Below are positions 10,281 to 22,949 of a stretch of DNA of 32,000 nt, piece by piece (the stretch's first letter is position 1; each line of letters opens with the position of its first letter). A model generated the notes under the pieces. That model was not told where the DNA came from. It made no database searches and saw only the letters and a list, made by a program, of their open reading frames with translations. This stretch comes from Dickeya solani IPO 2222 (GTDB lineage Bacteria; Pseudomonadota; Gammaproteobacteria; Enterobacterales; Enterobacteriaceae). The stretch covers positions 270,001 to 302,000 of the forward strand of contig NZ_CP015137.1 of assembly GCF_001644705.1 (NCBI RefSeq), in the 5' to 3' direction. The translations under genes were made by a program, and so were the position numbers.

Positions 10281-10793
10281 TTAGTAATGTTTCTGCCAGT
10301 GCAGATATTGATCGTACTTCCGCAGAGCACTGCGGTATGTATTCTGCTCGATATCAGGCAAATAATCGCAAATACGCTGCTGAATATTGCCATCCGAGGA
10401 GAAGCTTTCCTGCGGATAACTCTTCGCCAGTAGCAATTCATCCAGACGCCGCAGGCGGATGACATATTCCCGCATCGTGCTGTGGCGTACCTCAGTCTGT
10501 TCGATCAGATACTGCGTAAACGCTTTGATATCGAAATAATTGGCGTGTGTATTGCAGGATACTTCACTGCAAAAACGACATAGGGGGATGAGTTCTTCCT
10601 GCACAGATTCCCAGATAGTGTTGTCAATCAGTCGATCCATCATGGCTATCGACTTTTTATTGATGAGCTGATCGCGAAATACCAGCGAAACACGATCCAG
10701 TTCCTTGGCACAATTGGCGCAGTGTGTTTGCCTGTGTTTGAAGTCTTTCAAATAACGGCTCAGAAGCTGCTTCTTCCTGGTTGCTTGAGGCAT
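10281..10793 (-). CDS. fliZ: Flagellar regulatory protein FliZ
   Basis: LSRYLKDFKHRQTHCANCAKELDRVSLV...CRFCSEV.C...YVIRLRRL...YRSALRKYDQY aligns with E. coli FliZ (LSRYLKDFKHSQTHCAHCRKLLDRITLV...). It lies immediately downstream of fliA. Confidence 0.9.
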   Translation of the reverse strand: MPQATRKKQLLSRYLKDFKHRQTHCANCAKELDRVSLVFRDQLINKKSIAMMDRLIDNTIWESVQEELIPLCRFCSEVSCNTHANYFDIKAFTQYLIEQTEVRHSTMREYVIRLRRLDELLLAKSYPQESFSSDGNIQQRICDYLPDIEQNTYRSALRKYDQYLHWQKHY

Positions 10794-10847: not shown

Positions 10848-11570
10848 TTAAACGTCACTCATTAATTTCGCACGCAGACGCTTTATCGCCTGGCTATGCA
10901 ACTGACTAACGCGCGACTCCCCGACTTCCAGAACTGCCCCAATCTCCTTTAGGTTCAGTTCTTCCTGATAATAGAGGGTCAACACCATTTTCTCTCGCTC
11001 TGGTAGGCTTTCAATCGCGTCCATCACTCGCTGGCGTAAATTCACGTCCAGCAGTTGATTTAACGGATTCGCGTCCTCATTTCCTTCCAGTAACGCCTCA
11101 GCGCTATCTCCATGCTCTTCCCGCCATTCATCGTAAGAAAACAACTGGCTATTGTTGGTATCCAGAAGAATCTGGCGATACTCCTCCAGCGAGATATTCA
11201 GGGTTTGGGCCACTTCCTGTTCGGTAGGAGCCCGGCCGAGTGACTGTTCAGTCTGCTGCATTGCCTGCGCGACTTCCCGGGCGTTACGCCTGACACTGCG
11301 TGGCGCCCAGTCCCGGCTGCGCAGCTCATCCAGCATCGCGCCACGAATACGTTGCACGGCATAGGTGGTAAATGCCGTGCCTTGCAACGAATCATAACGT
11401 TCTACGGCACTGAGCAGCCCGATCCCCCCCGCTTGCAGGAGATCATCGAGCTCGACGCTTGCCGGAAGACGAACCTGTAAACGTAAGGCTTCATGGCGCA
11501 CCAGGGGAACATAGCGCTTCCATAATGAATTTTTATCCATTGTGCCTTCAGCGGTATACAGTTCGCTCAC
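10848..11570 (-). CDS. fliA: Flagellar sigma factor FliA (sigma28)
   Basis: SELYTAEGTMDKNSLWKRYVPLVRHEALRLQVRLPASVELDDLLQAGGIGLL... is more than 80% identical by eye to E. coli FliA. It uses a GTG start, as in E. coli. Confidence 0.97.
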   Translation of the reverse strand: MSELYTAEGTMDKNSLWKRYVPLVRHEALRLQVRLPASVELDDLLQAGGIGLLSAVERYDSLQGTAFTTYAVQRIRGAMLDELRSRDWAPRSVRRNAREVAQAMQQTEQSLGRAPTEQEVAQTLNISLEEYRQILLDTNNSQLFSYDEWREEHGDSAEALLEGNEDANPLNQLLDVNLRQRVMDAIESLPEREKMVLTLYYQEELNLKEIGAVLEVGESRVSQLHSQAIKRLRAKLMSDV

Positions 11571-11871: not shown

Positions 11872-13299
11872 TTAGCTATTAAGCTTATTGCCATATTTTT
11901 CAATAAGATAATCTTTATATTTCGAATAGCGGTTTTGCGCATCCTTGATAGTAGTGACCACCCAGGCGAATGAGCTTTCTCTGTGATTGACATCACAGAC
12001 AAAAGACGCATCAATCCGCGCAATATGGGTTGATTTTCCCACCCCATCCAGAACGGAAGATAATGCAACCTGATCCAAAAACCAGACTGCATTATTCTTC
12101 ATCAAATTATTCCATATAAACAAAGCAACTTTTTTGATAAATCGTCTGGATTCCTCGCCACCGTTAAGGTAAACAAATCCGGCAATGGCTTTTTCCCAGA
12201 ACGGCGAACTTTCGCTTTTCGTCAAAGCAATATCCGCTGACGCAATAGTCTGCTCGACAAATAGCCAGCCATTCTTCATCAGGCAATCCGCATCAACAAT
12301 AATCAACGGCCCGTTGACGATAGGCAACAGATAATTGGCCGCAACAAACCGTCTGCAAGCATAGTGCACATTAATACCGAAAACATCAGCAATCGGTTCA
12401 GCCGTACAGGAAATATTCAGTTCAGGAAACTGTGTACGTTTCGCGTTGATATCATCAGCCGTCACCTCGTCAATATTATAGACGTGAAGGTGTACATTGA
12501 ATTTTTCACGGTTGGTTTCATAAAGTGAGTAAATCAGATGTACGGCATGCTGATGATAATATTTAACATCACACGCAATCAGTATGGTGGGTTTATCATT
12601 ATCATGATTTCTTTTATGTAACCATCGATAATGCTCATAACTGACGTTCTCTGTTTTCGATACCAGTGAACTGAAATCAATATATGAATCAGGATAACCA
12701 CCACTCTTGAATATGGTCGAGACGATCATCAGCAACGTCAGCGGGTCTTCACCAATAAGATAGGCGTTGGCGGTCATTCTTTTGACGAGCAACAGCGCAT
12801 ACTCGTAATCGTCTTCCAGAATACAGGTGAGCAGCAAAATCTTAAAAATAACAGGCACATCCTGTAGAGCGTCCAGGTTGTTCTCAATCAGAGCGACGGC
12901 ATGTTCTATCGCGCCAATCCGGAACAGCAACTGGATAGAGGCGACCAGATATTCAAGATTCGGCGCCAGCTCTAATACGTCGCTAAGATAACTGACAACA
13001 CTGTCGATATACTCGGCCGGCATATGCACCTGCTGACCGCTCCATTTTTCATCTAGCGCCAGATTAGACAAGGCAATCGCATTCAGCAGCAACTTCAGTG
13101 CGCGATCCTGCGCCTCCGGCAAATTGCTCTGGTTGGCAGCCAGATTTTTGTTCAGGGCATAAATATCGCAGCTTCTATTGACAATTACATCAACGACAAT
13201 CTCTTTCGGCAGGTTGCCAATATCGCCAATCATCAACTCCCGGCTGAACACATCCCGATAATATTGATGTGTCGATTTTACATGCGTGTAATCCGCCAT
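11872..13299 (-). CDS. Two-domain protein: N-terminal helical domain of unknown function plus a C-terminal GT-A fold (GT8-like) nucleotide-diphospho-sugar transferase
   Basis: The C-terminal half has GT8-like landmarks: ILIACDVKYYHQHAVHLIYSL (compare LgtC IVFAADDNYAAYL), a HLHVYN strand, YACRRFVAANYL, and a DxD motif in LIIVDADCL (nt 12286-12294). The ATG at 13299 has an AAGG upstream (the ORF-track TTG at 13305 is rejected). The coding call is firm; the function is inferred. Confidence 0.7.
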   Translation of the reverse strand: MADYTHVKSTHQYYRDVFSRELMIGDIGNLPKEIVVDVIVNRSCDIYALNKNLAANQSNLPEAQDRALKLLLNAIALSNLALDEKWSGQQVHMPAEYIDSVVSYLSDVLELAPNLEYLVASIQLLFRIGAIEHAVALIENNLDALQDVPVIFKILLLTCILEDDYEYALLLVKRMTANAYLIGEDPLTLLMIVSTIFKSGGYPDSYIDFSSLVSKTENVSYEHYRWLHKRNHDNDKPTILIACDVKYYHQHAVHLIYSLYETNREKFNVHLHVYNIDEVTADDINAKRTQFPELNISCTAEPIADVFGINVHYACRRFVAANYLLPIVNGPLIIVDADCLMKNGWLFVEQTIASADIALTKSESSPFWEKAIAGFVYLNGGEESRRFIKKVALFIWNNLMKNNAVWFLDQVALSSVLDGVGKSTHIARIDASFVCDVNHRESSFAWVVTTIKDAQNRYSKYKDYLIEKYGNKLNS

Positions 13300-13366
13300 A
13301 AACAACCTTCAATTCATTGTATTTACTGTTACGGCAACATGATCAGACATATTACAGAATGCCTTT

Positions 13367-13377
13367 CCGGGTGATCT
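13367..13377. repeat. Copy 1 of the intergenic 11-mer CCGGGTGATCT (followed by gCTcAACC), embedded in a hairpin
   Basis: An identical 11-mer recurs at 14608-14618 in the next intergenic spacer. Here it forms the left arm of TTTCCGGGTG-N11-CACCCGGGAAA (13364-13395), 8 nt after the FkbM gene stop. Confidence 0.5.
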
Positions 13378-13402
13378 GCTCAACCACCCGGGAAATGACT
13401 TA

Positions 13403-14488
13403 TCAGTTGTCCACCGGGATAAAGAACATGATGGTCTCAGCCCACCCTTCGGTATAGTGGCGCAGATGAATGCGATAATCATTCCGCAGGCTCAGGATAT
13501 ATTCGGGAATCTTCCAGAAGTCAGTCGGATAATGATAAACCGCCACCGCCAGTTTCGGGTGGTCATCCAGAATATGCTGTTTCATTCCGGTCAGCGCGGC
13601 AATTTCCGCCCCCTCCAGATCCAGCTTGATAAAAGTAACGGGCTCATTAACTACGCTATCCAGCGTCGCCACTTCAATTTTTACGTTCCCTTCTTCCGAA
13701 ATATGGCTGGCGGAGCCATCGCCCGAGGAAAAGCTCAGCGTCGTATTCCGATCGAACAATCCAAGCGGATGATAGGTAACGCCATGCAGATGCTGCATAT
13801 TCTTCTTAGCCAGAACCAGTGTATCGCTGCCCGGCTCGAAGAAATGGATGCCGCCATACCCTGGGCAACGTTTGGCGAATTCCAGGCTGGTAAAGCCATC
13901 AAACCCGCCGCCATCAACAAAAACTTCGCCATCGGAAAACGCAACGAACGGTTCGAAATACTGTCTGTCGACACAGAAATCGTATTTATCGATCGCGGCC
14001 AGATTGGCCTCCAGACGAAAACGCAAGATATCGTCAAATACCTGACGGGATTCATCATCGACCAGCAGCCCACGGATCCACTCGAATTTCGCAGTGTTGG
14101 TCGTATACTCTTTACGCATATCGGTAATGCATTCAAGCTGGGGAACCGCGCCGTGGCTCAGATCGGCAAACGCGAAATAGTCCATCACCTCATTGACGCC
14201 TGCCGCTTTCAGTTTTTCCACGCCGGTTCTGGGGCGGGAATTGGTCACAGCAGACACCACCATGCAGTCCTTCTCGATTTGATTCAGGCGCAGCACCGGC
14301 TTTCCCAGCCATGTCGTCAGGTCGGTATATTCGTCAATAAAACCGTCGACCGGCGCGACTCTGGCGACGGCCTCCGCATACTGGTTAACGCCCAGTACAT
14401 AGTGTTTAACACCATCGGCACGGGTAAACCGCTCAAAAAAGTCAGCTGGTGCGCTGTTCGCGGCCGCAGGCTTACTGGCTGTATTCAT
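13403..14488 (-). CDS. FkbM-family SAM-dependent methyltransferase
   Basis: The C-terminal half VFVDGGGFDGFTSLEFAK...FFEP....L..N...........LG..........(S)....FIKLDLEGAEIAAL is the FkbM (Methyltransf_21) pattern. The ATG at 14488 has a GGAGAG 8 nt upstream; the ORF-track GTG at 14545 is less likely. Confidence 0.85.
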   Translation of the reverse strand: MNTASKPAAANSAPADFFERFTRADGVKHYVLGVNQYAEAVARVAPVDGFIDEYTDLTTWLGKPVLRLNQIEKDCMVVSAVTNSRPRTGVEKLKAAGVNEVMDYFAFADLSHGAVPQLECITDMRKEYTTNTAKFEWIRGLLVDDESRQVFDDILRFRLEANLAAIDKYDFCVDRQYFEPFVAFSDGEVFVDGGGFDGFTSLEFAKRCPGYGGIHFFEPGSDTLVLAKKNMQHLHGVTYHPLGLFDRNTTLSFSSGDGSASHISEEGNVKIEVATLDSVVNEPVTFIKLDLEGAEIAALTGMKQHILDDHPKLAVAVYHYPTDFWKIPEYILSLRNDYRIHLRHYTEGWAETIMFFIPVDN

Positions 14489-14607
14489 TCGTCTTCTCTC
14501 CAATACTTTCTGATATCGTAATGAGTCATCACCCTCATCATGCACCGCTCCGCCATGGTGTTGTCAGCAAACGCGGCCTTACCAGTAAAAGTTTAGTGAC
14601 AGTAACA

Positions 14608-14618
14608 CCGGGTGATCT
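14608..14618. repeat. Copy 2 of the intergenic 11-mer CCGGGTGATCT (followed by CTaAACC)
   Basis: An exact repeat of 13367-13377, in the 191-nt spacer between the oxidoreductase and FkbM genes. Confidence 0.5.
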
Positions 14619-14679
14619 CTAAACCGATACAGTACAAAATCAGCAACACATTGATTTATATATTTATCAGATCACAGAT

Positions 14680-15813
14680 TTACTCCGTGATCCGAACCTT
14701 CTCTCCTTTATGCGCGCTGGCGGCGGCGGCCTGGAGATAACGAATACCGCGCATCGCAACATCGGCGCCAAACACATACTCGCACGCGCCTTCTTTCAGA
14801 TAAGAAGCAATGTCCTCGTAGTAATTGGCGAACGCTTCGATAAATCCGGCGGGGTGGCCGGCTTTAAAACGGTTGTAGCGTGGCTGCGATGCGATCAGGT
14901 TATCCGGGTGCGTTCTGTCGATCACGCAAGAGACGCCGTTGATATTGCTGAGCTTCAAATGCTCAGGGTCCATCTGCAACCATTCTGCCGATCCTTTGCT
15001 GCCATAAACCCGGATACGCAGCCCGTTGCGGTAACCCAGCGCCGCCTTGGTGTACCAGTAATTGCACACCACCTGATTGGTGTAACCGGAAATGCAGTGA
15101 ACCGTATCCACCACATCTGGGATTTCGCCGAACCGATGGTGCACCGCGTACACATCCTGCGCCTGCTCGCCAATAATGTAATCCACCATCTGATGGGCAT
15201 GCACCCCCAGATCCAGCGACACGGTAGGGATCACGCCGTCATGCTGGCGCCAGTCCTGCGGACGCGGCACCGCCCCGCTTTTCACATGACGCAGAAAGCC
15301 TTCCTGAGGCATTTCAACCATGACCTGCCGGATCTGCCCCAGCTCGCCATCGGCGATCCGCTGTTTCAGTTCCCTGACCATCGGGTAACCGGAATAATTG
15401 AAGGTAACCAGCAGCGTCCCGTTCATTTTTTCCAGCGCATGCTGAATCTCAGCCACTTCCTCCACGCTGGTTGCCAGCGACTTCTCACAGATCACCGGCA
15501 ATTGATGCTCAATACAGGCAATCACAATATCTTTATGCGTCGGCGTCGGTGTCAAAATAACGACCGCATCCAGTTTGCTGGCTTCCGCGTGCAAAAAGCT
15601 GGTCAGATCGCGGTACACGCGATCTTCATGAATTCCCCAACTGGCGGCGGTTTGCTGATTGATGTCATCATGGCGGCTGAAAAACCCCGATACCAGCTCG
15701 AACTGGCCATCCATCTGCGAAGCAATCTTGTGCGTTTCACCGATTGCCGAATTAATGCCCCCGCCGATGAAGCCGACTTTTAATGCCTCACCGTTGTTTG
15801 TCATGCTTTTCAT
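14680..15813 (-). CDS. Gfo/Idh/MocA-family NAD(P)-dependent oxidoreductase (sugar dehydrogenase-type)
   Basis: N-terminal Rossmann motif LKVGFIGGGINSAIGETH, then VVILTPTPTHKDIVIACIEHQLPVICEKSL (the family's EKP-like motif). Its ATG overlaps the upstream gene's TGA (ATGA, 15810-15813), indicating translational coupling. Confidence 0.88.
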   Translation of the reverse strand: MKSMTNNGEALKVGFIGGGINSAIGETHKIASQMDGQFELVSGFFSRHDDINQQTAASWGIHEDRVYRDLTSFLHAEASKLDAVVILTPTPTHKDIVIACIEHQLPVICEKSLATSVEEVAEIQHALEKMNGTLLVTFNYSGYPMVRELKQRIADGELGQIRQVMVEMPQEGFLRHVKSGAVPRPQDWRQHDGVIPTVSLDLGVHAHQMVDYIIGEQAQDVYAVHHRFGEIPDVVDTVHCISGYTNQVVCNYWYTKAALGYRNGLRIRVYGSKGSAEWLQMDPEHLKLSNINGVSCVIDRTHPDNLIASQPRYNRFKAGHPAGFIEAFANYYEDIASYLKEGACEYVFGADVAMRGIRYLQAAAASAHKGEKVRITE

Positions 15814-16997
15814 TTCTCTTTCCCCAGAAAAGAGTGGCTCACCACCAGATGGTGTTTCAGGTTTCCGGTATTTTTTAGCAGATGCGCTTTATCATTGAAG
15901 GTCATAAAGACGACGGCAGCCCGATCGCCTGGCGCCGGATTCAGCACTTCGCCGCTTTTTTTCAGCACGACACTCTCCAGTAATTCACCGGGCAACTGGT
16001 GATAACGCAGCGCGTTAAAGATCGTTTTTTCAGACACCGATACGGTATGTCTGGCTACATAATGGCGGGCCGCCGGCCGCTTATTGGCGAATGTCGACGG
16101 CAGCGATAAAAAAGGCGCCACAAAGTATTCCGCATAAGGGATATCGGTGGAGTAACGAATCAGCTGGCAATATAAATCGCCCGGGCAGCGCCGGGTCAGT
16201 TCGATCAGCCAAAAATCGTCGCCATTGGCGATAAATTGCGTATGCAGCAAGCCGTCACATAACTTCAGGTCGGCAACAATACTGTTGATGCAGTCACTGA
16301 CGGCATTTTTCAGCGTTTCACTCATTTGATGAGCCACACAGCTGCTGTTCACCTGATAAGGGTAGACGGTGCAATATTCATCAACAAAGAACTCACAGAC
16401 AATCTCGCCATTACGAATGAACGCCGAATGGCTGTGCAGCGATCCCTGCTTGAACTCTTCTATTACCACCTGGCCGCTTACCGATGCCGACGCGGCCGAC
16501 TGGTAAGCCGGCAGAATATCCTGCTCACGCTGAACCTGGGTAATACCGCGGCCACTGTAGGCATCGACAGGCTTGACCAGAATCGGATACGACAGTTGCC
16601 CCACCGACTCAATGTCACGCACCGCCTTAGGAATCGGCAGTCCCTTACGCTGCGCATAAGCACGAAACACATCCTTTTTCAGCAGGATCGCCGTTGTCTC
16701 AACCGAATCGAAACCGGGCATGCCCAGCGATTGCGCAACCCAGGCGCCGGTTTCGTAAGAGACATCCGTCACTCCGGGCAAAATAGCCTTAATATTTTTC
16801 TTTCTGACAATGCCGAGAATGGCCTCTTTGTCCGAATAATCTTCGACAATCGACCGGGTTGCCCGGATATGACCAGGATCGCCGGGTTTACCACTGCACA
16901 CACCAATCGCAACGCCCTGTTCCAGGCACGCCTCCAGCAGAGGCAGCGCCGAAAAACCCGCATCAAGCATTAAGGCATCTATAGTCGACATATCCAT
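15810..16997 (-). CDS. ATP-grasp domain ligase (carbamoyl-phosphate-synthase-like / carboxylate-amine ligase type)
   Basis: FRAYAQRKGLPIPK...YPILVKPVDAYSGRGITQV...VVIEEFKQG...WLIELTRRCPGD follows the ATP-grasp layout: the K of the B-loop region, an EE.. hinge, and E/N-type Mg ligand positions. Confidence 0.85.
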   Translation of the reverse strand: MDMSTIDALMLDAGFSALPLLEACLEQGVAIGVCSGKPGDPGHIRATRSIVEDYSDKEAILGIVRKKNIKAILPGVTDVSYETGAWVAQSLGMPGFDSVETTAILLKKDVFRAYAQRKGLPIPKAVRDIESVGQLSYPILVKPVDAYSGRGITQVQREQDILPAYQSAASASVSGQVVIEEFKQGSLHSHSAFIRNGEIVCEFFVDEYCTVYPYQVNSSCVAHQMSETLKNAVSDCINSIVADLKLCDGLLHTQFIANGDDFWLIELTRRCPGDLYCQLIRYSTDIPYAEYFVAPFLSLPSTFANKRPAARHYVARHTVSVSEKTIFNALRYHQLPGELLESVVLKKSGEVLNPAPGDRAAVVFMTFNDKAHLLKNTGNLKHHLVVSHSFLGKEK

Positions 16998-17077: not shown

Positions 17078-18205
17078 TTAACGCACGTTTTCACTCAATG
17101 TGCGCCCAATAATCTCAATGATGCGGTCCTGATCGCCGGTTTCCAGCCCCGGATAAATGGGCAGACACAGCACAGCGTTGGCGATGTCGGTCGCTACCGG
17201 CAAATTCTCGGCGCTCGCGCTGCCAAGGCCGCGGTACATCGGGAAACTGCTGATCAACGGGTAGAAATACCGGCGTGACATGATGCCGTGCTCTTTTAAG
17301 GCGCCATAAAGTTTCTCGCGCACATCGAACGAGTAATCATTAACAAAAAGCGGGAAATAGGCATAATTCCAGTCAATTGAATCCGGCACGCTCAGCGTCC
17401 TGATGCTATTAATCTGAGCCAGCCCGTCACGGTAATAGCGGTAAATGCGTTTCCTGTCTTCCAGCGCCTGATCGATATAATTCAGTTGCAATAAGCCAAA
17501 CGCCGCCTGCACTTCGTTCATTTTGCCGTTAATGCCGGGGGCAACCACGGTGGTTTCATCCGCAAAGCCGAAGTTTTTCAGATAATCGATCCGTTTCTTC
17601 ATTTTGGCGTCGGGACAAATAATGGCGCCGCCTTCAATGGTGTTGAACACCTTGGTCGCATGGAAACTCAGAATCGAGAGATCGCCATAATTCAGAATAC
17701 TGTCGCCATCCTTTTTCACACCGAAAGAGTGTGCGGCGTCATAAATCACCTTCAGGCCGTAGACATCCGCAATATTCTGGATTCGATCAACATCGCAAGG
17801 AATACCATAACAGTGGACGGGCAGAATGGCGGAGGTGAGCGGCGTAATCGCTTCTTCAATCTTTTTGGGATCCAGGTTGCAGGTAACCGGATCAATATCG
17901 ACAAAGACAGGCTTGAGGTTATTCCACAATAACGAGTGAGATGTCGCCACAAACGAGTAAGGCGTGGTGATGACTTCGCCGGTGATGCGCAACGCCTGCA
18001 GCGCCGTCAGCAGCGCCAGCGTGCCGTTCGTGAACAGACACAGATGTTTAACGCCCAGATATTCAGCCAGAGCGTGCTCAAGCTGCTGGTGAAAAGGTCC
18101 GCCGTTCGTCAGATATTTGTTATCCCATATCTTTTCCAGATAGGGCGTAAATTCATCAAGCGGTGGCAGTAAAGGGCTCGTTACATAGATGTTCTTGCTC
18201 ATCAT
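17078..18205 (-). CDS. DegT/DnrJ/EryC1/StrS-family PLP-dependent sugar aminotransferase (WecE-like)
   Basis: FTNGTLALLTALQAL, VITTPYSFVATSHS, VIYDAAHSFG, and the PLP-lysine motif LSILSFHATKVFNTIEGGAI (compare E. coli WecE FSFHETKNYTAGGEGG). Confidence 0.92.
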   Translation of the reverse strand: MMSKNIYVTSPLLPPLDEFTPYLEKIWDNKYLTNGGPFHQQLEHALAEYLGVKHLCLFTNGTLALLTALQALRITGEVITTPYSFVATSHSLLWNNLKPVFVDIDPVTCNLDPKKIEEAITPLTSAILPVHCYGIPCDVDRIQNIADVYGLKVIYDAAHSFGVKKDGDSILNYGDLSILSFHATKVFNTIEGGAIICPDAKMKKRIDYLKNFGFADETTVVAPGINGKMNEVQAAFGLLQLNYIDQALEDRKRIYRYYRDGLAQINSIRTLSVPDSIDWNYAYFPLFVNDYSFDVREKLYGALKEHGIMSRRYFYPLISSFPMYRGLGSASAENLPVATDIANAVLCLPIYPGLETGDQDRIIEIIGRTLSENVR

Positions 18206-18330: not shown

Positions 18331-21300
18331 TTATGATTCGTTTTCCCAGTCAATGCTGAATGTTCTGGGCTCGTTTCCTTCGCAATAAATCTGCCACGCG
18401 TTGCGTATTGCGCGTTCAAAATAAATGGACGGCGACAAAACGGAATTCATTCTGGCGGCGATACGCCCACGGATTCCGGCGCGCACGTCACTGAGTTTTT
18501 CCAGTGATTGACGCCAGTACAGCGCCTTTTGTACAAACTCGTCTTCTTCCGTCGCGATAAAGTCATCCAGCCCCAGAATACGCATGGTGACGCTGCCTTG
18601 ACGTGAGGCGATGGACTCGCCTTCACGGGTCAGCACCGGCACGCCCATCCAGGCGGCGTGACTCACCGTGGTTCCACCGGTATACGGATAGGTATCCAGC
18701 AACAGGTCCACTTCACGGTGCATTCCCAGATATTCTTTCAGCCCGGTCCGCATGCGGAAAGACAGTTGCTCTTCCTTCACCCCGAACTCGACTAACCGAT
18801 CGCGGAAGTAGTCGATGGTTTCCTGACCCGTCATGTACCCCATGATCAGCCGGGAATCCGGCATCGCCGTCAACACCTTGGCCCACAGGGCCAGCGTTTC
18901 GTCAGTAATTTTCTGCGGACGATTGAAACTGGCAAACGTCAGATAACCGTTTTTCAATGCCGGCAGTTCATTCACTTCCGGGCTATCTTTGACCGGTTCA
19001 AAATATTTCACCGAAGGCAGATAAATGATTTTTTCCGTCAGGTACGGATCGAGCGCGCCCCCCTGGATGTAATGCAAATCAAGCAGGATGTAATCAACGC
19101 TCTTCATACCTGTCGTGCCGGGATAACCAATCCAGGTCATCTGGATCGGTGCGGGTTTCAGCGCCAACACCGGCAACCGGTTATAAGCCGTATGCCCGGA
19201 CAGATCGATCAGGATGTCGATTTCGTCCTTATTGATGAGTGTCGCCAGTTCGAGGTCGCCCATTTTGTCGACATCATGCCAGCCAGCCACGGTCTGTTTT
19301 AGGCTCTCGGCCTTTTCATCGTTACGTTGAAAACTTGAGTAGGCGTAAAGCGAGAACACGCTTCGATCAAGCGAATTCCAGATAGGCTCCAGGAAATTCG
19401 TCACCGGATGGTCGCCAAAGTCGCCGGAAATAAAACCAATGCGTAGCGGGCGCTGTGTTGCTTTATCAAGGGAGTAGGCAAACTGGCAGTGATAGCGCTC
19501 GGCCGCTTCTTCCACCCGCTGACCGAATACAAGGTGCTCCTGAAACAGCTCCTGTGGCGTCACGTTGACATCGTGGGACAGCCCCAGCAGCAGGTTGCTG
19601 TACAGGTGAAACGCCTGAGGCATCAACTCAATGGTCTTACGGTGGTACTGGATGGCGTCCTTCCGCCCCAGATTATGGCACACCATCCCCATATGGCTGA
19701 TAAAGTTGGGGTTTTCTGGCTCAATCTGCAGCGCCTTCTCCATGCACTTAAACGCTGAATCCAGTCTATGGGTGATATTCAACAAAATCGCCAGCGTGTC
19801 CCACGCCAGCCCTTTTTGCTTATCACAACGCAATACTTTTCTGGTCAGCGCCATGCCCTGATGCAGTTCGTTCTTTTTCCAGAAGCACACCGCCAGATCA
19901 ATATAAAAATCCCAGTTGAAAGGCATCAGCGCGATTGCTCTGGTAATGATGCTCAGCGCGCCATCAAAATCGCCGGTACGGACATAGGTGTTCACGAAGG
20001 GATACCAAACCCACAGGTTGTCGGGATAGGTACTGATAATCTCTTCCGCTTTTGTTCTGACATCGGCAAACTGCCCCAGTGTAGTTAGCCGATCAATCTC
20101 TTCGTACACCTTCCGGTTGAGCGGGTTTCTATCCTGCGGCTTATTCTTTTTATGTGTCGACGATTTTTCCGGCTCAACAAAGCCGCCCGCAGTGGTTTCG
20201 CTGGTGTACATCACCAGCGACTGGATATAAACAGCAACCTGCCCGGCATCCGCCTGCACGATCGCTTCCTGCAAGCAGTCCCGCCACGCGCGTGGCGTTC
20301 CCCATATCAGGCCTTTATTACGCAGCGCCCAGAGCTGGCTATAAAACGCCTTATCCTTGTTCAGGGTCGGTGATGATAGCTGTTGCAGGAACTGCCGTTC
20401 GTCACTATCAAGCGACACCGGTTCATGCCAGAAATTGAATGACAGATCGGTCGTGGCAATGCCGGGCAACCCAGCCAGCGTCTTATGCCGGCTGTTTCGG
20501 TAAGTACAATTCCCCATCCGCGTGTAGATGCCATTGATCCCTTTCACAAAAAGGTTCTTTAACGCCTCCAGCACATTCTGCCGATGATTCTCCACTTCTT
20601 TTTCCGGCAACTGGGTATTAAAGACCAATTGATCCAGAGTCAAACTGGCAGGCCAGGCCTCCCCCAACGCATCCAGAATACTTAGTACCACTGGGTTTTC
20701 CGTGCTGATGGTTTCACCACTACTGGAGGTATGGACATTCAGCGTACTGCCATTGCTTGCTGTAACGCGTTGAAAATTTCCCGCCCAGTTGAAATCCGCC
20801 AGCCTGGAAAGATCGGGTTCCGGCAGCACCGCCTCCGCCCTCTCCTGTGGAACCAACATACTGAAGCGCTGGGAACGGTTAACGGCGAAATCAAGATATT
20901 GCTGGCGCAGATAGGTGGTATTTTCAGGGCAAATCGTCTCGTGCAAGCGCGAAACCTGATCGCCGTAATGCCCCGCCAGTTCAGTGTAGGCGCGAACATC
21001 GCCGACATAGGCAAAGCCGGTTTGGGTAATCTGTGAATAGAAATCAACGAAGTAGCAAGGCTGATTCAGCCCCTGCAGATAATGCAGCGCGAAATCCACA
21101 TCGGACTGTTTTTCGGCTTGTTCAATAAAGGTTTTCAGCGCTGCATTCTGGGGGTTATCCGGGGACGTTCCCAAAGACAGGTAAGTCAGCATCGCGCGGG
21201 CGCTGGCTTGTGCCGTATTTTCATCACTGGCGAGGCTGCTGTGAAGCTGAATAGCGTCCCGTAGGATTTCGCCGGTCTTCCAACCGGGATAAGTGTTGTA

Positions 21301-21783
21301 GCAATAGCAGACGATACCTTCCGCAGTCAGATGCTCGCTGCAGAATCGCAGCAGTGCTTCCCGCGTCTCACCACCGATAAGACTGAACAGACCGTGGACA
21401 ATGATGTAATCGAATTTTCCGGGATCGCAAGCCAGCAGAGATTCGAGATCCAGAGCAAATAACGCGATATTGCCCAGTTCGAGCTGTTTTATCAGCGTAC
21501 AGCCTTTTTCAATTTGCTCCGCATCAAGATCAACCCCGACAGACTGCGACTGTGGATTCGCCAGCGCAAAAGGCAGCAAATTGCCGCCATCCTTACACCC
21601 GATCTCAAGCACGCGCGCATTTTCCGGTACAGCCGATGTGATGCCATAAAGATGTGCAGTGGCTTGCAGATGGAAAGGTGCGGTGTAAGGAACAGGAGGG
21701 GCCATCGAACTCAACGGAGTTTTACCAGTATCTTCACCCAGGTCGTCATTATTCGCTAAAGGTTGTGTATCTGGCATGGTCAC
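18331..21783 (-). CDS. 1150-aa fusion protein: class I SAM methyltransferase, a ~390-aa middle region of unknown function (possibly a methyltransferase-regulatory-type domain), TPR repeats, and a GT41 (O-GlcNAc-transferase/SPINDLY-like) glycosyltransferase
   Basis: SAM motif I is VLEIGCKDGGN (aa 58-68). TPR-like helices span about aa 560-735. The GT41 landmarks are LRIGFISGDFGDHPV, IDLSGHTAYNRLPVLALKPAPIQMTWIGYPGTTG, TFASFNRPQKIT (compare OGT FNQLYKI with the catalytic Lys) and LDTYPYTGGTTVSHAAWMGVPVLT (compare OGT [24 protein letters not shown]). The GTG at 21783 has a GAGGGA 8 nt upstream; an alternative ATG lies at 21777. Confidence 0.88.
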   Translation of the reverse strand: MTMPDTQPLANNDDLGEDTGKTPLSSMAPPVPYTAPFHLQATAHLYGITSAVPENARVLEIGCKDGGNLLPFALANPQSQSVGVDLDAEQIEKGCTLIKQLELGNIALFALDLESLLACDPGKFDYIIVHGLFSLIGGETREALLRFCSEHLTAEGIVCYCYNTYPGWKTGEILRDAIQLHSSLASDENTAQASARAMLTYLSLGTSPDNPQNAALKTFIEQAEKQSDVDFALHYLQGLNQPCYFVDFYSQITQTGFAYVGDVRAYTELAGHYGDQVSRLHETICPENTTYLRQQYLDFAVNRSQRFSMLVPQERAEAVLPEPDLSRLADFNWAGNFQRVTASNGSTLNVHTSSSGETISTENPVVLSILDALGEAWPASLTLDQLVFNTQLPEKEVENHRQNVLEALKNLFVKGINGIYTRMGNCTYRNSRHKTLAGLPGIATTDLSFNFWHEPVSLDSDERQFLQQLSSPTLNKDKAFYSQLWALRNKGLIWGTPRAWRDCLQEAIVQADAGQVAVYIQSLVMYTSETTAGGFVEPEKSSTHKKNKPQDRNPLNRKVYEEIDRLTTLGQFADVRTKAEEIISTYPDNLWVWYPFVNTYVRTGDFDGALSIITRAIALMPFNWDFYIDLAVCFWKKNELHQGMALTRKVLRCDKQKGLAWDTLAILLNITHRLDSAFKCMEKALQIEPENPNFISHMGMVCHNLGRKDAIQYHRKTIELMPQAFHLYSNLLLGLSHDVNVTPQELFQEHLVFGQRVEEAAERYHCQFAYSLDKATQRPLRIGFISGDFGDHPVTNFLEPIWNSLDRSVFSLYAYSSFQRNDEKAESLKQTVAGWHDVDKMGDLELATLINKDEIDILIDLSGHTAYNRLPVLALKPAPIQMTWIGYPGTTGMKSVDYILLDLHYIQGGALDPYLTEKIIYLPSVKYFEPVKDSPEVNELPALKNGYLTFASFNRPQKITDETLALWAKVLTAMPDSRLIMGYMTGQETIDYFRDRLVEFGVKEEQLSFRMRTGLKEYLGMHREVDLLLDTYPYTGGTTVSHAAWMGVPVLTREGESIASRQGSVTMRILGLDDFIATEEDEFVQKALYWRQSLEKLSDVRAGIRGRIAARMNSVLSPSIYFERAIRNAWQIYCEGNEPRTFSIDWENES

Positions 21784-21946
21784 AAGGAATTTCCCTCAAT
21801 ACTTTATGCGGAGATAAAATTGTTCGTAGTATATAAGAAAGCCCTTTTCACCAATCCTCTGAGCATCAAATTATAACTTCCCTATTTCGCCGCTTAAGAA
21901 GCCGATTTTTATTCTGATAAATTTATTTATCCCGACTGTGTCACAA

Positions 21947-21980
21947 AATAAAAAACCAACCCCGAAGGGTTGGCTTTTTT
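21947..21980. terminator. fliC Rho-independent terminator (bidirectional architecture)
   Basis: AAATAAAAAA-CCAACCC-CGAA-GGGTTGG-CTTTTTT. Read on the minus strand, it lies ~30 nt after the fliC stop and is followed by TTTTTTATTT. Confidence 0.85.
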
Positions 21981-22010
21981 AATTCGCTACTGCAACTGCG
22001 TAAACAGGGA

Positions 22011-22922: not shown

Positions 22923-22949
22923 GTATCGGCCGGGGTAAAACAACCTTTA
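22923..22949 (-). promoter_or_regulatory. sigma28 (FliA) class 3 promoter of fliC
   Basis: The minus strand reads TAAAGGTT-N11-GCCGATAC against the consensus TAAAGTTT-N11-GCCGATAA. An A9 tract sits immediately upstream (UP-like), and the leader is ~60 nt. Confidence 0.8.

Follow-up and report, generated by a model that had tools for sequence, protein, structure and literature searches.

Organization of the locus

The stretch of DNA analysed here (the window) comprises 32,000 nucleotides (nt) of Dickeya solani IPO 2222 (contig NZ_CP015137.1, positions 270,001 to 302,000), and window coordinates are used throughout unless another locus is named. The genes stand in the order fliD (plus strand), fliC (minus strand), a large open reading frame (ORF) of 1150 amino acids (aa), and genes for a DegT aminotransferase, an ATP-grasp enzyme, a Gfo/Idh/MocA oxidoreductase, an FkbM methyltransferase, a 477-aa protein and FliA (Table 1). 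The cluster is a flagellin glycosylation island, located in the slot which is held by fliB in Salmonella. The large ORF, the subject of this analysis, is made up of two catalytic modules and one docking array: a methyltransferase module of the protein-lysine methyltransferase (PKMT) type, an array of tetratricopeptide repeats (TPR) and a glycosyltransferase domain of family GT41. We lean towards the view that it encodes a flagellin-modifying enzyme, in which glycosylation by the TPR-GT41 half would be combined with lysine methylation of the same flagellin by the tethered PKMT module.

The first-pass annotation of the sequence had described the gene as a fusion of an S-adenosylmethionine (SAM, AdoMet) methyltransferase, TPRs and GT41. 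This architecture was borne out by profile matches far above the curated cutoffs and by AlphaFold (AF2) models compared with Foldseek; the word "tri-functional", used for it at the time, is too strong for two catalytic modules and one docking array. The encoded protein is identical to D. solani AUC41225.1 and others, and FliC and the 477-aa neighbour are also exact D. solani matches. It is 95.4% identical to its counterpart on a D. dadantii 3937-type chromosome (L085), where the same six island genes occur in identical order. In L085 an IS200/Y1-type transposase gene (L085 786-1244) lies between fliC and the large gene; in D. solani only a 227-bp intergenic region (21784-22010) is present.

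The start codon is GTG, with GAGGG 9 nt upstream. An in-frame ATG at 21777, two codons past the GTG, gives the 1148-aa form that is annotated in many records. The large ORF is, as had been noted, the first gene after the fliC terminator (21979-21950). Its designation as the lead gene of the island was based on position and did not hold up: clear sigma-28 sites were seen at fliC and fliD, no convincing sigma-28 or sigma-70 consensus was found in the intergenic region before the large ORF, and according to Royet et al. (2018, PMC6637903) the island genes of D. dadantii do not constitute one operon.

Records of the identical D. solani protein carry the names "tRNA (guanine-N(7)-)-methyltransferase", "methyltransferase regulatory domain-containing protein" and "O-linked GlcNAc transferase, SPINDLY family". 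The first of these is a mis-annotation, which probably arose from a weak Methyltransf_4/TrmB match (23.9 bits, below the cutoff). The assignments given below would correct the database names "tRNA (guanine-N7)-methyltransferase" and "O-GlcNAc transferase".

Table 1. Features of the flagellin island in the window, with the large ORF and its predicted modules listed first.
Feature	Coordinates	Strand	Basis or remark
Whole ORF, 1150 aa	18331..21783	-	D. solani ortholog of D. dadantii Dda3937_03424
PKMT-type protein-lysine methyltransferase module, aa 26-539	20167..21708	-	AdoMet-binding core (~aa 31-170) plus dimerization, middle and C-terminal domains
SAM motif I VLEIGCKDGG, aa 58-67	21583..21612	-	Residue conservation, PKMT1 alignment
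MethyTransf_Reg (PF10119), aa 234-311	20851..21084	-	E 5e-15, 56.5 bits
Inter-module linker, aa 540-556	20116..20166	-	Poorly conserved, partly disordered
TPR array, ~11 helices (5.5 repeats), aa 557-740	19564..20115	-	TPR_19, TPR_17, consensus TPR proteins; model helices aa 557-737
GT41 (SPINDLY/OGT-type, GT-B) catalytic domain, aa 741-1150	18334..19563	-	PF13844, SPY match, Foldseek
fliC, flagellin, 280 aa	22011..22853	-	Presumed substrate
fliC intrinsic terminator	21950..21979	-	13-bp stem, then T-run; directly upstream of the large ORF
fliC sigma-28 (FliA)-type promoter	22923..22949	-	TAAAGGTT-N11-GCCGATAC
DegT/DesI-type sugar aminotransferase	17078..18205	-	PF01041, E 1.9e-101
Rest of island, overall	11872..16997	-	
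ATP-grasp enzyme	15810-16997	-	
Gfo/Idh/MocA oxidoreductase	14680-15813	-	
FkbM methyltransferase	13403-14545	-	
477-aa protein	11872-13305	-	Ortholog of Dda3937_03419
fliA (sigma-28)	10848..11570	-	Far island boundary
170-aa ORF just downstream of fliA	10281-10793	-	Weak Phage_int_SAM_1 match

The TPR-GT41 half

Pfam searches with the large protein gave a Glyco_transf_41 (PF13844) match of 141.7 bits (cutoff 25, E 3e-41) and a TPR_19 match of 37.4 bits (cutoff 25). Residues 606-1140 align with Arabidopsis SPINDLY (SPY; PDB 7y4i) at E 2e-74, and weaker sequence matches to this half than that of SPINDLY were obtained with Thermobaculum OGT, human OGT and Xanthomonas XcOGT. The profile of the family matched SPY at E 6e-172. 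A full-length AF2 model computed with 86 homologs had a mean predicted local distance difference test score (pLDDT) of 89.4 and a predicted template-modelling score (pTM) of 0.88, and consisted, beyond the N-terminal half, of 11 TPR helices followed by a two-lobe GT-B domain. In Foldseek comparisons of this model, TMt was 0.80 for SPY (8dti), 0.91 for Thermobaculum OGT (TtOGT, 5djs; root-mean-square deviation 2.3 Å) and 0.76 for XcOGT.

The sequence landmarks named in the first-pass annotation were all confirmed in place: besides the methyltransferase motif VLEIGCKDGG, these are FNRPQK (aa 953-958, nt 18910-18927) and LDTYPYTGGTT (aa 1029-1039, nt 18667-18699). K958 aligned to the lysine of SPY FNNLAK, and H792, located in GDFGDHP, aligned to the N-Cat histidine in SPY PDFFTH. 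H792, H864, R955 and T1039 are invariant across the 86 homologs, and position 958 is Lys in 70 and Arg in 16. The ratio of nonsynonymous to synonymous substitution rates (dN/dS) between D. solani and D. dadantii, the pair used for all such values here, was 0.046 for the TPRs and 0.058 for GT41. The profile threshold, the GT-B fold with its TPR superhelix and the catalytic residues, that is, all the sequence and fold tests applied, agree in placing the domain in GT41. On this basis aa 557-1150 is predicted to be a protein O-glycosyltransferase of the SPINDLY/bacterial-OGT type, composed of TPRs and GT41, in which the catalytic residues H792, H864, R955, K958 and T1039 are all intact.

The large ORF very probably encodes a glycosyltransferase that acts in flagellin glycosylation. 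In D. dadantii, insertion mutant A4277 in Dda3937_03424 yields FliC of 28,890 Da against 32,170 Da in the wild type, a loss of ~3.3 kDa; the mutant macerates less celery and its motility is unchanged (Royet et al. 2018, PMC6637903). As shown mostly by others, this 95%-identical ortholog is required for all detectable FliC mass addition. The way in which flagellin is decorated bears on immune recognition by plants and animals, on adhesion and on fitness, and the D. dadantii mutant macerates less tissue. The TPR array is presumed to dock the flagellin. The TPR domain of Caulobacter FlmG binds flagellins in two-hybrid assays, and the earlier suggestion that the TPRs recognise a protein substrate is supported by analogy with it.

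The context of TPR-GT41 genes was compared at 79 loci in other species. Betaproteobacteria commonly have TPR-GT41 genes that come without a methyltransferase; the usual neighbour is a DegT gene 58-75% identical to that of the window, and fliC and fliD are often adjacent as well. Several Betaproteobacteria (Rhodoferax, Gallionellaceae, Paraburkholderia) and the gammaproteobacterium Methylobacter were seen to have two or three TPR-GT41 paralogs in tandem (L016 8090-13558; L041 10001-16120; L017, L019, L044, L056, L073), and some of these tandem loci adjoin one or more flagellin genes. The arrangement suggests multiple flagellin glycosyltransferases of differing specificities.

The sugar donor

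The donor used by OGT is UDP-GlcNAc, and DesI is a dTDP-4-keto-6-deoxyglucose C4-aminotransferase. The window aminotransferase was closest to DesI (PDB 2po3, E 2.5e-64); the NCBIfam model PLP_DesI matched it at 1e-85, below the equivalog cutoff. Most of the related loci examined pair TPR-GT41 with a conserved DegT/DesI-type gene. Judged by its sequence, the window enzyme probably makes a dTDP-4-amino-4,6-dideoxyhexose, and a DesI-like neighbour points to a derivative of this (viosamine-type) sugar, not UDP-GlcNAc, as the probable donor of the large protein. The donor bound by SPY, the best match among structures, is likewise a 6-deoxy sugar, GDP-fucose (title of PDB 8dti). The description "OGT-like", given earlier to the domain, thus stands for the GT41 family and not for GlcNAc transfer, the conserved partner being a DesI-type C4 aminotransferase.

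The N-terminal half resembles protein-lysine methyltransferases

About 390 aa behind the methyltransferase core (aa ~170-555) had been left unassigned in the first-pass annotation. The gap was real as a reading, and it now resolves into the dimerization, middle and C-terminal domains of a PKMT together with a disordered linker at aa 540-549. Pfam matches to Methyltransf_12 (52.7 bits, cutoff 30) and MethyTransf_Reg (56.5 bits, cutoff 25.5) were obtained. In a phmmer search, aa 29-422 matched Rickettsia prowazekii PKMT1 (5dnk) at E 4e-40 (PKMT1 scored E 1e-39 in a second comparison with the PDB), and R. typhi PKMT2 (5doo) matched the N-terminal half at E 2e-38. The family profile matched PKMT1 at E 5e-78, over positions 15-460 and PKMT1 residues 42-486. 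Rickettsia PKMT1 and PKMT2 methylate lysines of the outer-membrane protein OmpB.

A separate AF2 model of aa 1-545 (pLDDT 89.4, pTM 0.89) was compared with known structures by Foldseek. Ranks 1-8 were all PKMT1 or PKMT2 chains, aligned over 481-536 columns with TMq 0.65-0.72 and TMt 0.68-0.77, and the next rank was Rv2067c of M. tuberculosis, a histone-lysine methyltransferase. Generic class I methyltransferases reached a TM of only ~0.26 against the same model. Residues 26-539 thus almost certainly adopt the PKMT fold. The linker that follows is set apart by pLDDT below 50 at aa 540-549 in the full-length model, a dN/dS of 0.47 and the lack of conserved columns (0/17).

In R. prowazekii PKMT1 (RpPKMT1), Asp102 and His146 contact AdoMet, Leu103 and Ile130 affect the Michaelis constant (Km) for OmpB, and the fold contains a dimerization domain (PMC11784438). 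D102, L103, I130 and H146 correspond to D85 (in VGVDL), L86, L113 and H130 (in IVHG) of the large protein, so that D. solani itself retains L86, L113 and H130. Across 86 fusions, G62 is conserved in 86/86, C63 in 83/86, G66 in 81/86 and D85 in 81/86, the other five having Glu. Y126 and QYLD (aa 295-298) never vary, and Q294 and F299 vary little; the counterpart of QQYLDF (aa 294-299) in Rickettsia PKMT1/2 is EQYMDF. The motif residues are kept alike in the fusions, in stand-alone enzymes and in the Rickettsia enzymes. The dN/dS was 0.076 for the methyltransferase core and 0.137 for the accessory domains, which indicates purifying selection.

The PKMT match, the conserved motifs and the low dN/dS point, in sequence and model, to a PKMT-type enzyme which is selectively maintained, has an intact AdoMet site and is probably active. 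What is new here is the recognition, by sequence and model comparison, that aa 170-555 and the methyltransferase core together form one complete PKMT-type module. No earlier PKMT assignment of the flagellin-island methyltransferases was found in the literature, in a search that covered subscription journals thinly, so that its absence is not proof.

Sampled stand-alone relatives lie beside flagellin genes

A search with the N-terminal module alone returned more than 300 relatives, mostly stand-alone proteins of 530-566 aa, and most of these stand-alone homologs carry Pfam MethyTransf_Reg and WHD_PKMT. Seven stand-alone genes, whose products are 36-44% identical to the N-terminal module, were looked up by context. 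In Pectobacterium parmentieri the gene is the sole occupant between fliC and fliA, and in P. brasiliense it is flanked by two flagellin genes. It directly abuts a flagellin gene in Alcaligenes faecalis, Thauera aromatica and Bordetella bronchialis, and is one small gene away from it in Eoetvoesiella caeni. In Castellaniella defragrans it follows a flagellin gene within a multi-flagellin region with GT2 genes. Three Achromobacter loci have both a fusion downstream of fliC and a stand-alone gene located between fliA and fliC. Together, flagellin adjacency was seen at 10/10 of these loci (the seven looked up and the three from Achromobacter).

A glycosyltransferase gene was absent within 8 kb of the stand-alone gene in 6/7 of the loci looked up by context, which argues for a protein, rather than a glycan, as the acceptor. 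Three flagellins linked to stand-alone genes were examined, and their central domains contain 10-15 lysines. Rough neighbour-joining grouped the fusion modules as a single clade within the stand-alone enzymes, apart from Rickettsia PKMT1/2. From this gene context, the flagellin itself, not the glycan, appears to be the likeliest substrate of the PKMT module.

At the three Achromobacter loci (L007 5024-6790, L009 4822-6789, L014 5410-7059), two PKMT-type modules stand around one lysine-rich flagellin with 24-25 Lys. The Achromobacter fusion has Arg in place of the GT41 lysine and R or T in place of H130.

Proposed mechanism and the points against it

In the mechanism which we propose, the TPR array would dock unassembled flagellin in the cytoplasm, before export. 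The GT41 domain would then place the first sugar on Ser/Thr of a short surface-exposed central segment, this sugar being a dTDP-activated 4-amino-4,6-dideoxyhexose (viosamine-type) derivative and not GlcNAc. The donor would be built by the DesI-like aminotransferase and the ATP-grasp, oxidoreductase and FkbM enzymes. The tethered PKMT module would use SAM for N-methylation of lysine side chains of the same docked flagellin. Such a fusion may have arisen once, from a flagellin-dedicated stand-alone PKMT-like enzyme that would be an analogue of FliB with an unrelated fold. Two acceptors, the sugar or flagellin lysines as with Salmonella FliB, had been put forward in the first-pass annotation. 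The lysine option is the one favoured by the PKMT-type half and by the stand-alone relatives beside flagellin genes; the likeness to FliB is an analogy only.

A number of observations weigh against lysine methylation as proposed. FliC of D. solani has seven lysines only (K19, 41, 58, 65, 134, 208 and 277), all in D0/D1-type sequence, and its short central segment, 32% Ser/Thr, has none; lysine methylation would therefore be a minor modification in D. solani. No report of methyl-lysine in the flagellin of any of these taxa was found in the literature, and a cryo-electron microscopy paper on the Achromobacter flagellar filament reports no modifications either way. Residue H130 is His in only 56/86 fusions (12/20 in the tree set), being R or T in about a third. 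L86, L113 and H130 are all variable in the fusion clade and invariant or nearly so in the stand-alone enzymes, a pattern compatible with a changed acceptor such as an amino sugar. Pfam WHD_PKMT (PF21782) was not detected in the large protein at E <= 1. PKMT membership is otherwise indicated by the core with PF10119, the four-domain architecture and the AdoMet and Km residues, and since the fold still aligns over the WHD_PKMT region, sequence divergence is likelier than absence of the domain.

Three further points concern the comparisons. The seven stand-alone genes were hand-picked for long contigs and are a non-random sample. The identity of the donor, a viosamine-type dTDP-sugar and probably not UDP-GlcNAc, derives from the neighbouring genes only. 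Lysine content was higher in fusion-adjacent flagellins (3.5%) than in those beside TPR-GT41-only genes (2.0%; Mann-Whitney p = 0.0009); this test is confounded by phylogeny and is not counted as evidence, because the groups are phylogenetically clustered, with four loci from Achromobacter.

Masses published for D. dadantii FliC were compared with an approximate unmodified mass, obtained by joining the C-terminal 191 aa from L085 to Dickeya N-termini. The estimate was 28,687-28,727 Da without Met and 28,818-28,859 Da with Met. FliC of mutant A4277 (28,890 Da) is thus +31 to +203 Da over the approximate estimate, and ~160-200 Da above its Met-less form, a difference which the accuracy of matrix-assisted laser desorption/ionization (MALDI) and matrix adducts make impossible to interpret. 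The excess could be residual methylation, retained Met, a MALDI adduct or an error in the estimate. The Dda3937_03424 gene has six AgeI sites, through which the cassette may have entered, and five of these are in the GT41 part, downstream of the methyltransferase module.

Alternative roles of the methyltransferase module

Instead of flagellin lysines, the methyltransferase might act on the glycan or on a nucleotide-sugar precursor, by N-methylating the 4-amino group or an amino-acyl substituent, or by O-methylating the sugar, with GT41 positioning the glycosylated flagellin. This is unlikely, but it accounts for several features. The fusion is always accompanied by an amino-sugar pathway (DegT, ATP-grasp), the enterobacterial flagellins linked to it are short, Ser/Thr-rich and lysine-poor, and L86, L113 and H130 are relaxed in the fusion clade relative to the stand-alone enzymes. 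The methyltransferase domains were treated as glycan-modifying by De Maayer & Cowan (PMC4875605), and the amine of a tethered sugar would chemically resemble the lysine epsilon-amine. On the other hand, all the structural relatives above noise are protein-lysine methyltransferases, and the nearest stand-alone relatives stand beside flagellin genes with no glycosylation genes near. The island already holds a dedicated sugar-type methyltransferase, the FkbM enzyme, and in the Betaproteobacteria sampled, TPR-GT41 enzymes work without a PKMT module.

A non-catalytic role of the PKMT module, in dimerization, in extra binding or chaperoning of flagellin, or in SAM sensing that gates glycosylation, is improbable. 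The dimerization domain of the PKMT fold, the name "regulatory" given by Pfam to PF10119, the presence of R or T at the AdoMet-contacting position of H130 in roughly one third of the fusions and the few lysine targets in Dickeya FliC would fit such a role. It is opposed by the conservation of the SAM-binding residues (G62, G66 and D85, with Glu in the five exceptions at the last), by the catalytic core being the most constrained part of the module and by the retention in D. solani of every mapped PKMT1 functional residue. A methyl acceptor other than flagellin among the exported or surface proteins (FliD, hook-associated proteins, adhesins), comparable to OmpB or AtaA for other PKMTs, with the fusion serving co-regulation and no shared substrate, is less probable still: characterised PKMTs act on abundant surface proteins, sometimes promiscuously (OmpB, OmpA, Sca1), and FliD and further flagellar genes are adjacent, but the module is covalently fused to a TPR-GT41 flagellin enzyme and the stand-alone relatives sampled (10/10) lie immediately beside flagellin genes specifically.

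For Dickeya in particular, we regard the chances that flagellin lysines are the methyl acceptor as evenly balanced. A broader proposal, put forward more tentatively, is that flagellin lysines are methylated not by FliB only but also by a second, unrelated family, the PKMT-type enzymes, which would be widespread in Beta- and Gammaproteobacteria. These would occur stand-alone beside fliC (Pectobacterium parmentieri/brasiliense, Alcaligenes, Bordetella, Thauera, Achromobacter), and in one lineage (Dickeya, Pectobacterium, Cronobacter, Alcaligenaceae) fused to TPR-GT41, writing Lys N-methylation and Ser/Thr O-glycosylation on one docked flagellin. If flagellin lysine methylation is true, FliB gains a widespread non-homologous counterpart, the "FMI2/SmtA" islands are explained, and the fusion would be a rare natural example of a single enzyme writing two post-translational marks on one substrate via a shared docking domain.

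Comparison with known systems

The closest system is Dda3937_03424 and the "GT41 + AdoMet_MTase" enzymes, with the same fusion, an orthologous gene and the same six genes between fliC and fliA. In the survey of De Maayer & Cowan (2016, PMC4875605), covering 194 strains and 15 island types, the GT41 proteins of enterobacterial flagellin islands carry methyltransferase domains in all but one type, and all 44 Dickeya strains have a flagellin glycosylation island. Since both the gene and its part in flagellin glycosylation had been documented, neither is new, and D. solani adds a member of a described kind. Royet et al. (2018) and De Maayer & Cowan (2016) did not identify the PKMT type or test methylation, and the gene was called "O-GlcNAc transferase" there.

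The protein resembles SPINDLY and OGT in having a TPR array followed by a GT-B domain, with aligned catalytic Lys and His. It differs in having ~5.5 TPRs only, an extra N-terminal methyltransferase module of 540 aa, flagellin as the presumed substrate and probably a dTDP-amino-deoxyhexose as donor. With Rickettsia PKMT1/PKMT2 and Acinetobacter KmtA it shares the four-domain fold, the AdoMet-contacting Asp and His and the motifs QY(L/M)DF and (T)xPGW. Unlike these, it is fused to TPR-GT41, belongs to a separate flagellin-adjacent clade and has a diverged C-terminal domain and a putative acceptor.

Salmonella FliB occupies the same slot between fliC and fliA and has the job proposed here, flagellin lysine methylation. 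It is an unrelated [4Fe-4S] enzyme (PMC8598068), a functional analogue at most, and no FliB-type or Cys-rich Fe-S domain was present among the Pfam and NCBIfam matches of the large protein. FlmQ of Burkholderia cenocepacia and FlmG of Caulobacter likewise combine TPRs with a glycosyltransferase acting on flagellin, but without a methyltransferase module; FlmG transfers pseudaminic acid. In Burkholderia/Paraburkholderia loci, such as L076, a TPR-GT41 protein 33-36% identical is encoded beside fliC, fliD and DegT, and judging from genus and position the L076 protein may be FlmQ itself.

"SmtA" of the flagellin methylation island FMI2 in Pectobacterium wasabiae/parmentieri (De Maayer & Cowan 2016, PMC4875605) is a stand-alone homolog of the N-terminal module. 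The stand-alone protein of P. parmentieri (P0243; 564 aa, 38% identity) carries MethyTransf_Reg and WHD_PKMT, and from species and position we infer that it is the published SmtA. The P. parmentieri locus differs from that of D. solani in having no TPR/GT41 and no glycosylation genes, and its flagellin has 432 aa with 10 central lysines. Pseudomonas aeruginosa FgtA (PA1091), considered as the closest enzyme, was rejected: it combines GT2 with a phosphotransferase, its methyltransferase being the separate PA1088, and no GT2 match was found in a Pfam scan of the large protein.

Spread of the fusion and other genes of the island

Approximately 100 clusters of full-length fusion proteins were found by database search, from Dickeya, Pectobacterium, Brenneria, Symbiopectobacterium, Cronobacter and Alcaligenaceae (Achromobacter, Bordetella, Candidimonas, Pollutimonas). 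The fusion had initially been thought unusual. This does not hold, as the fusion and its glycosylation role are already published: the survey of 2016 mentions the fusion, and a mutant of the D. dadantii ortholog was described in 2018. A locus from a Pantoea metagenome-assembled genome (L003), considered as a non-flagellar fusion, was rejected since it lies inside a fliI-fliR cluster. In Candidatus Symbiopectobacterium (L001 7899-14976), two tandem fusion copies follow fliC. The methyltransferase part of the first copy appears split into separate ORFs of 235 and 504 aa, consistent with pseudogenisation in a symbiont genome.

No sequence matches of the 477-aa protein were found in Pfam, NCBIfam or the PDB. 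Its ortholog Dda3937_03419 accounts for ~1.1 kDa of D. dadantii FliC mass, FliC of the mutant being 31,034 Da against 32,170 Da in the wild type (Royet et al. 2018, PMC6637903). The protein may be a glycosyltransferase or a glycan-modifying enzyme of no known class. In Silvania (L006), the gene for a 36% homolog separates fliC from the fusion gene. By position and size, the 170-aa ORF immediately after fliA is probably fliZ; at loci of Pectobacterium and D. dadantii (L080, L085, L086), fliA is likewise followed by a similar match-less ORF of 170-171 aa.

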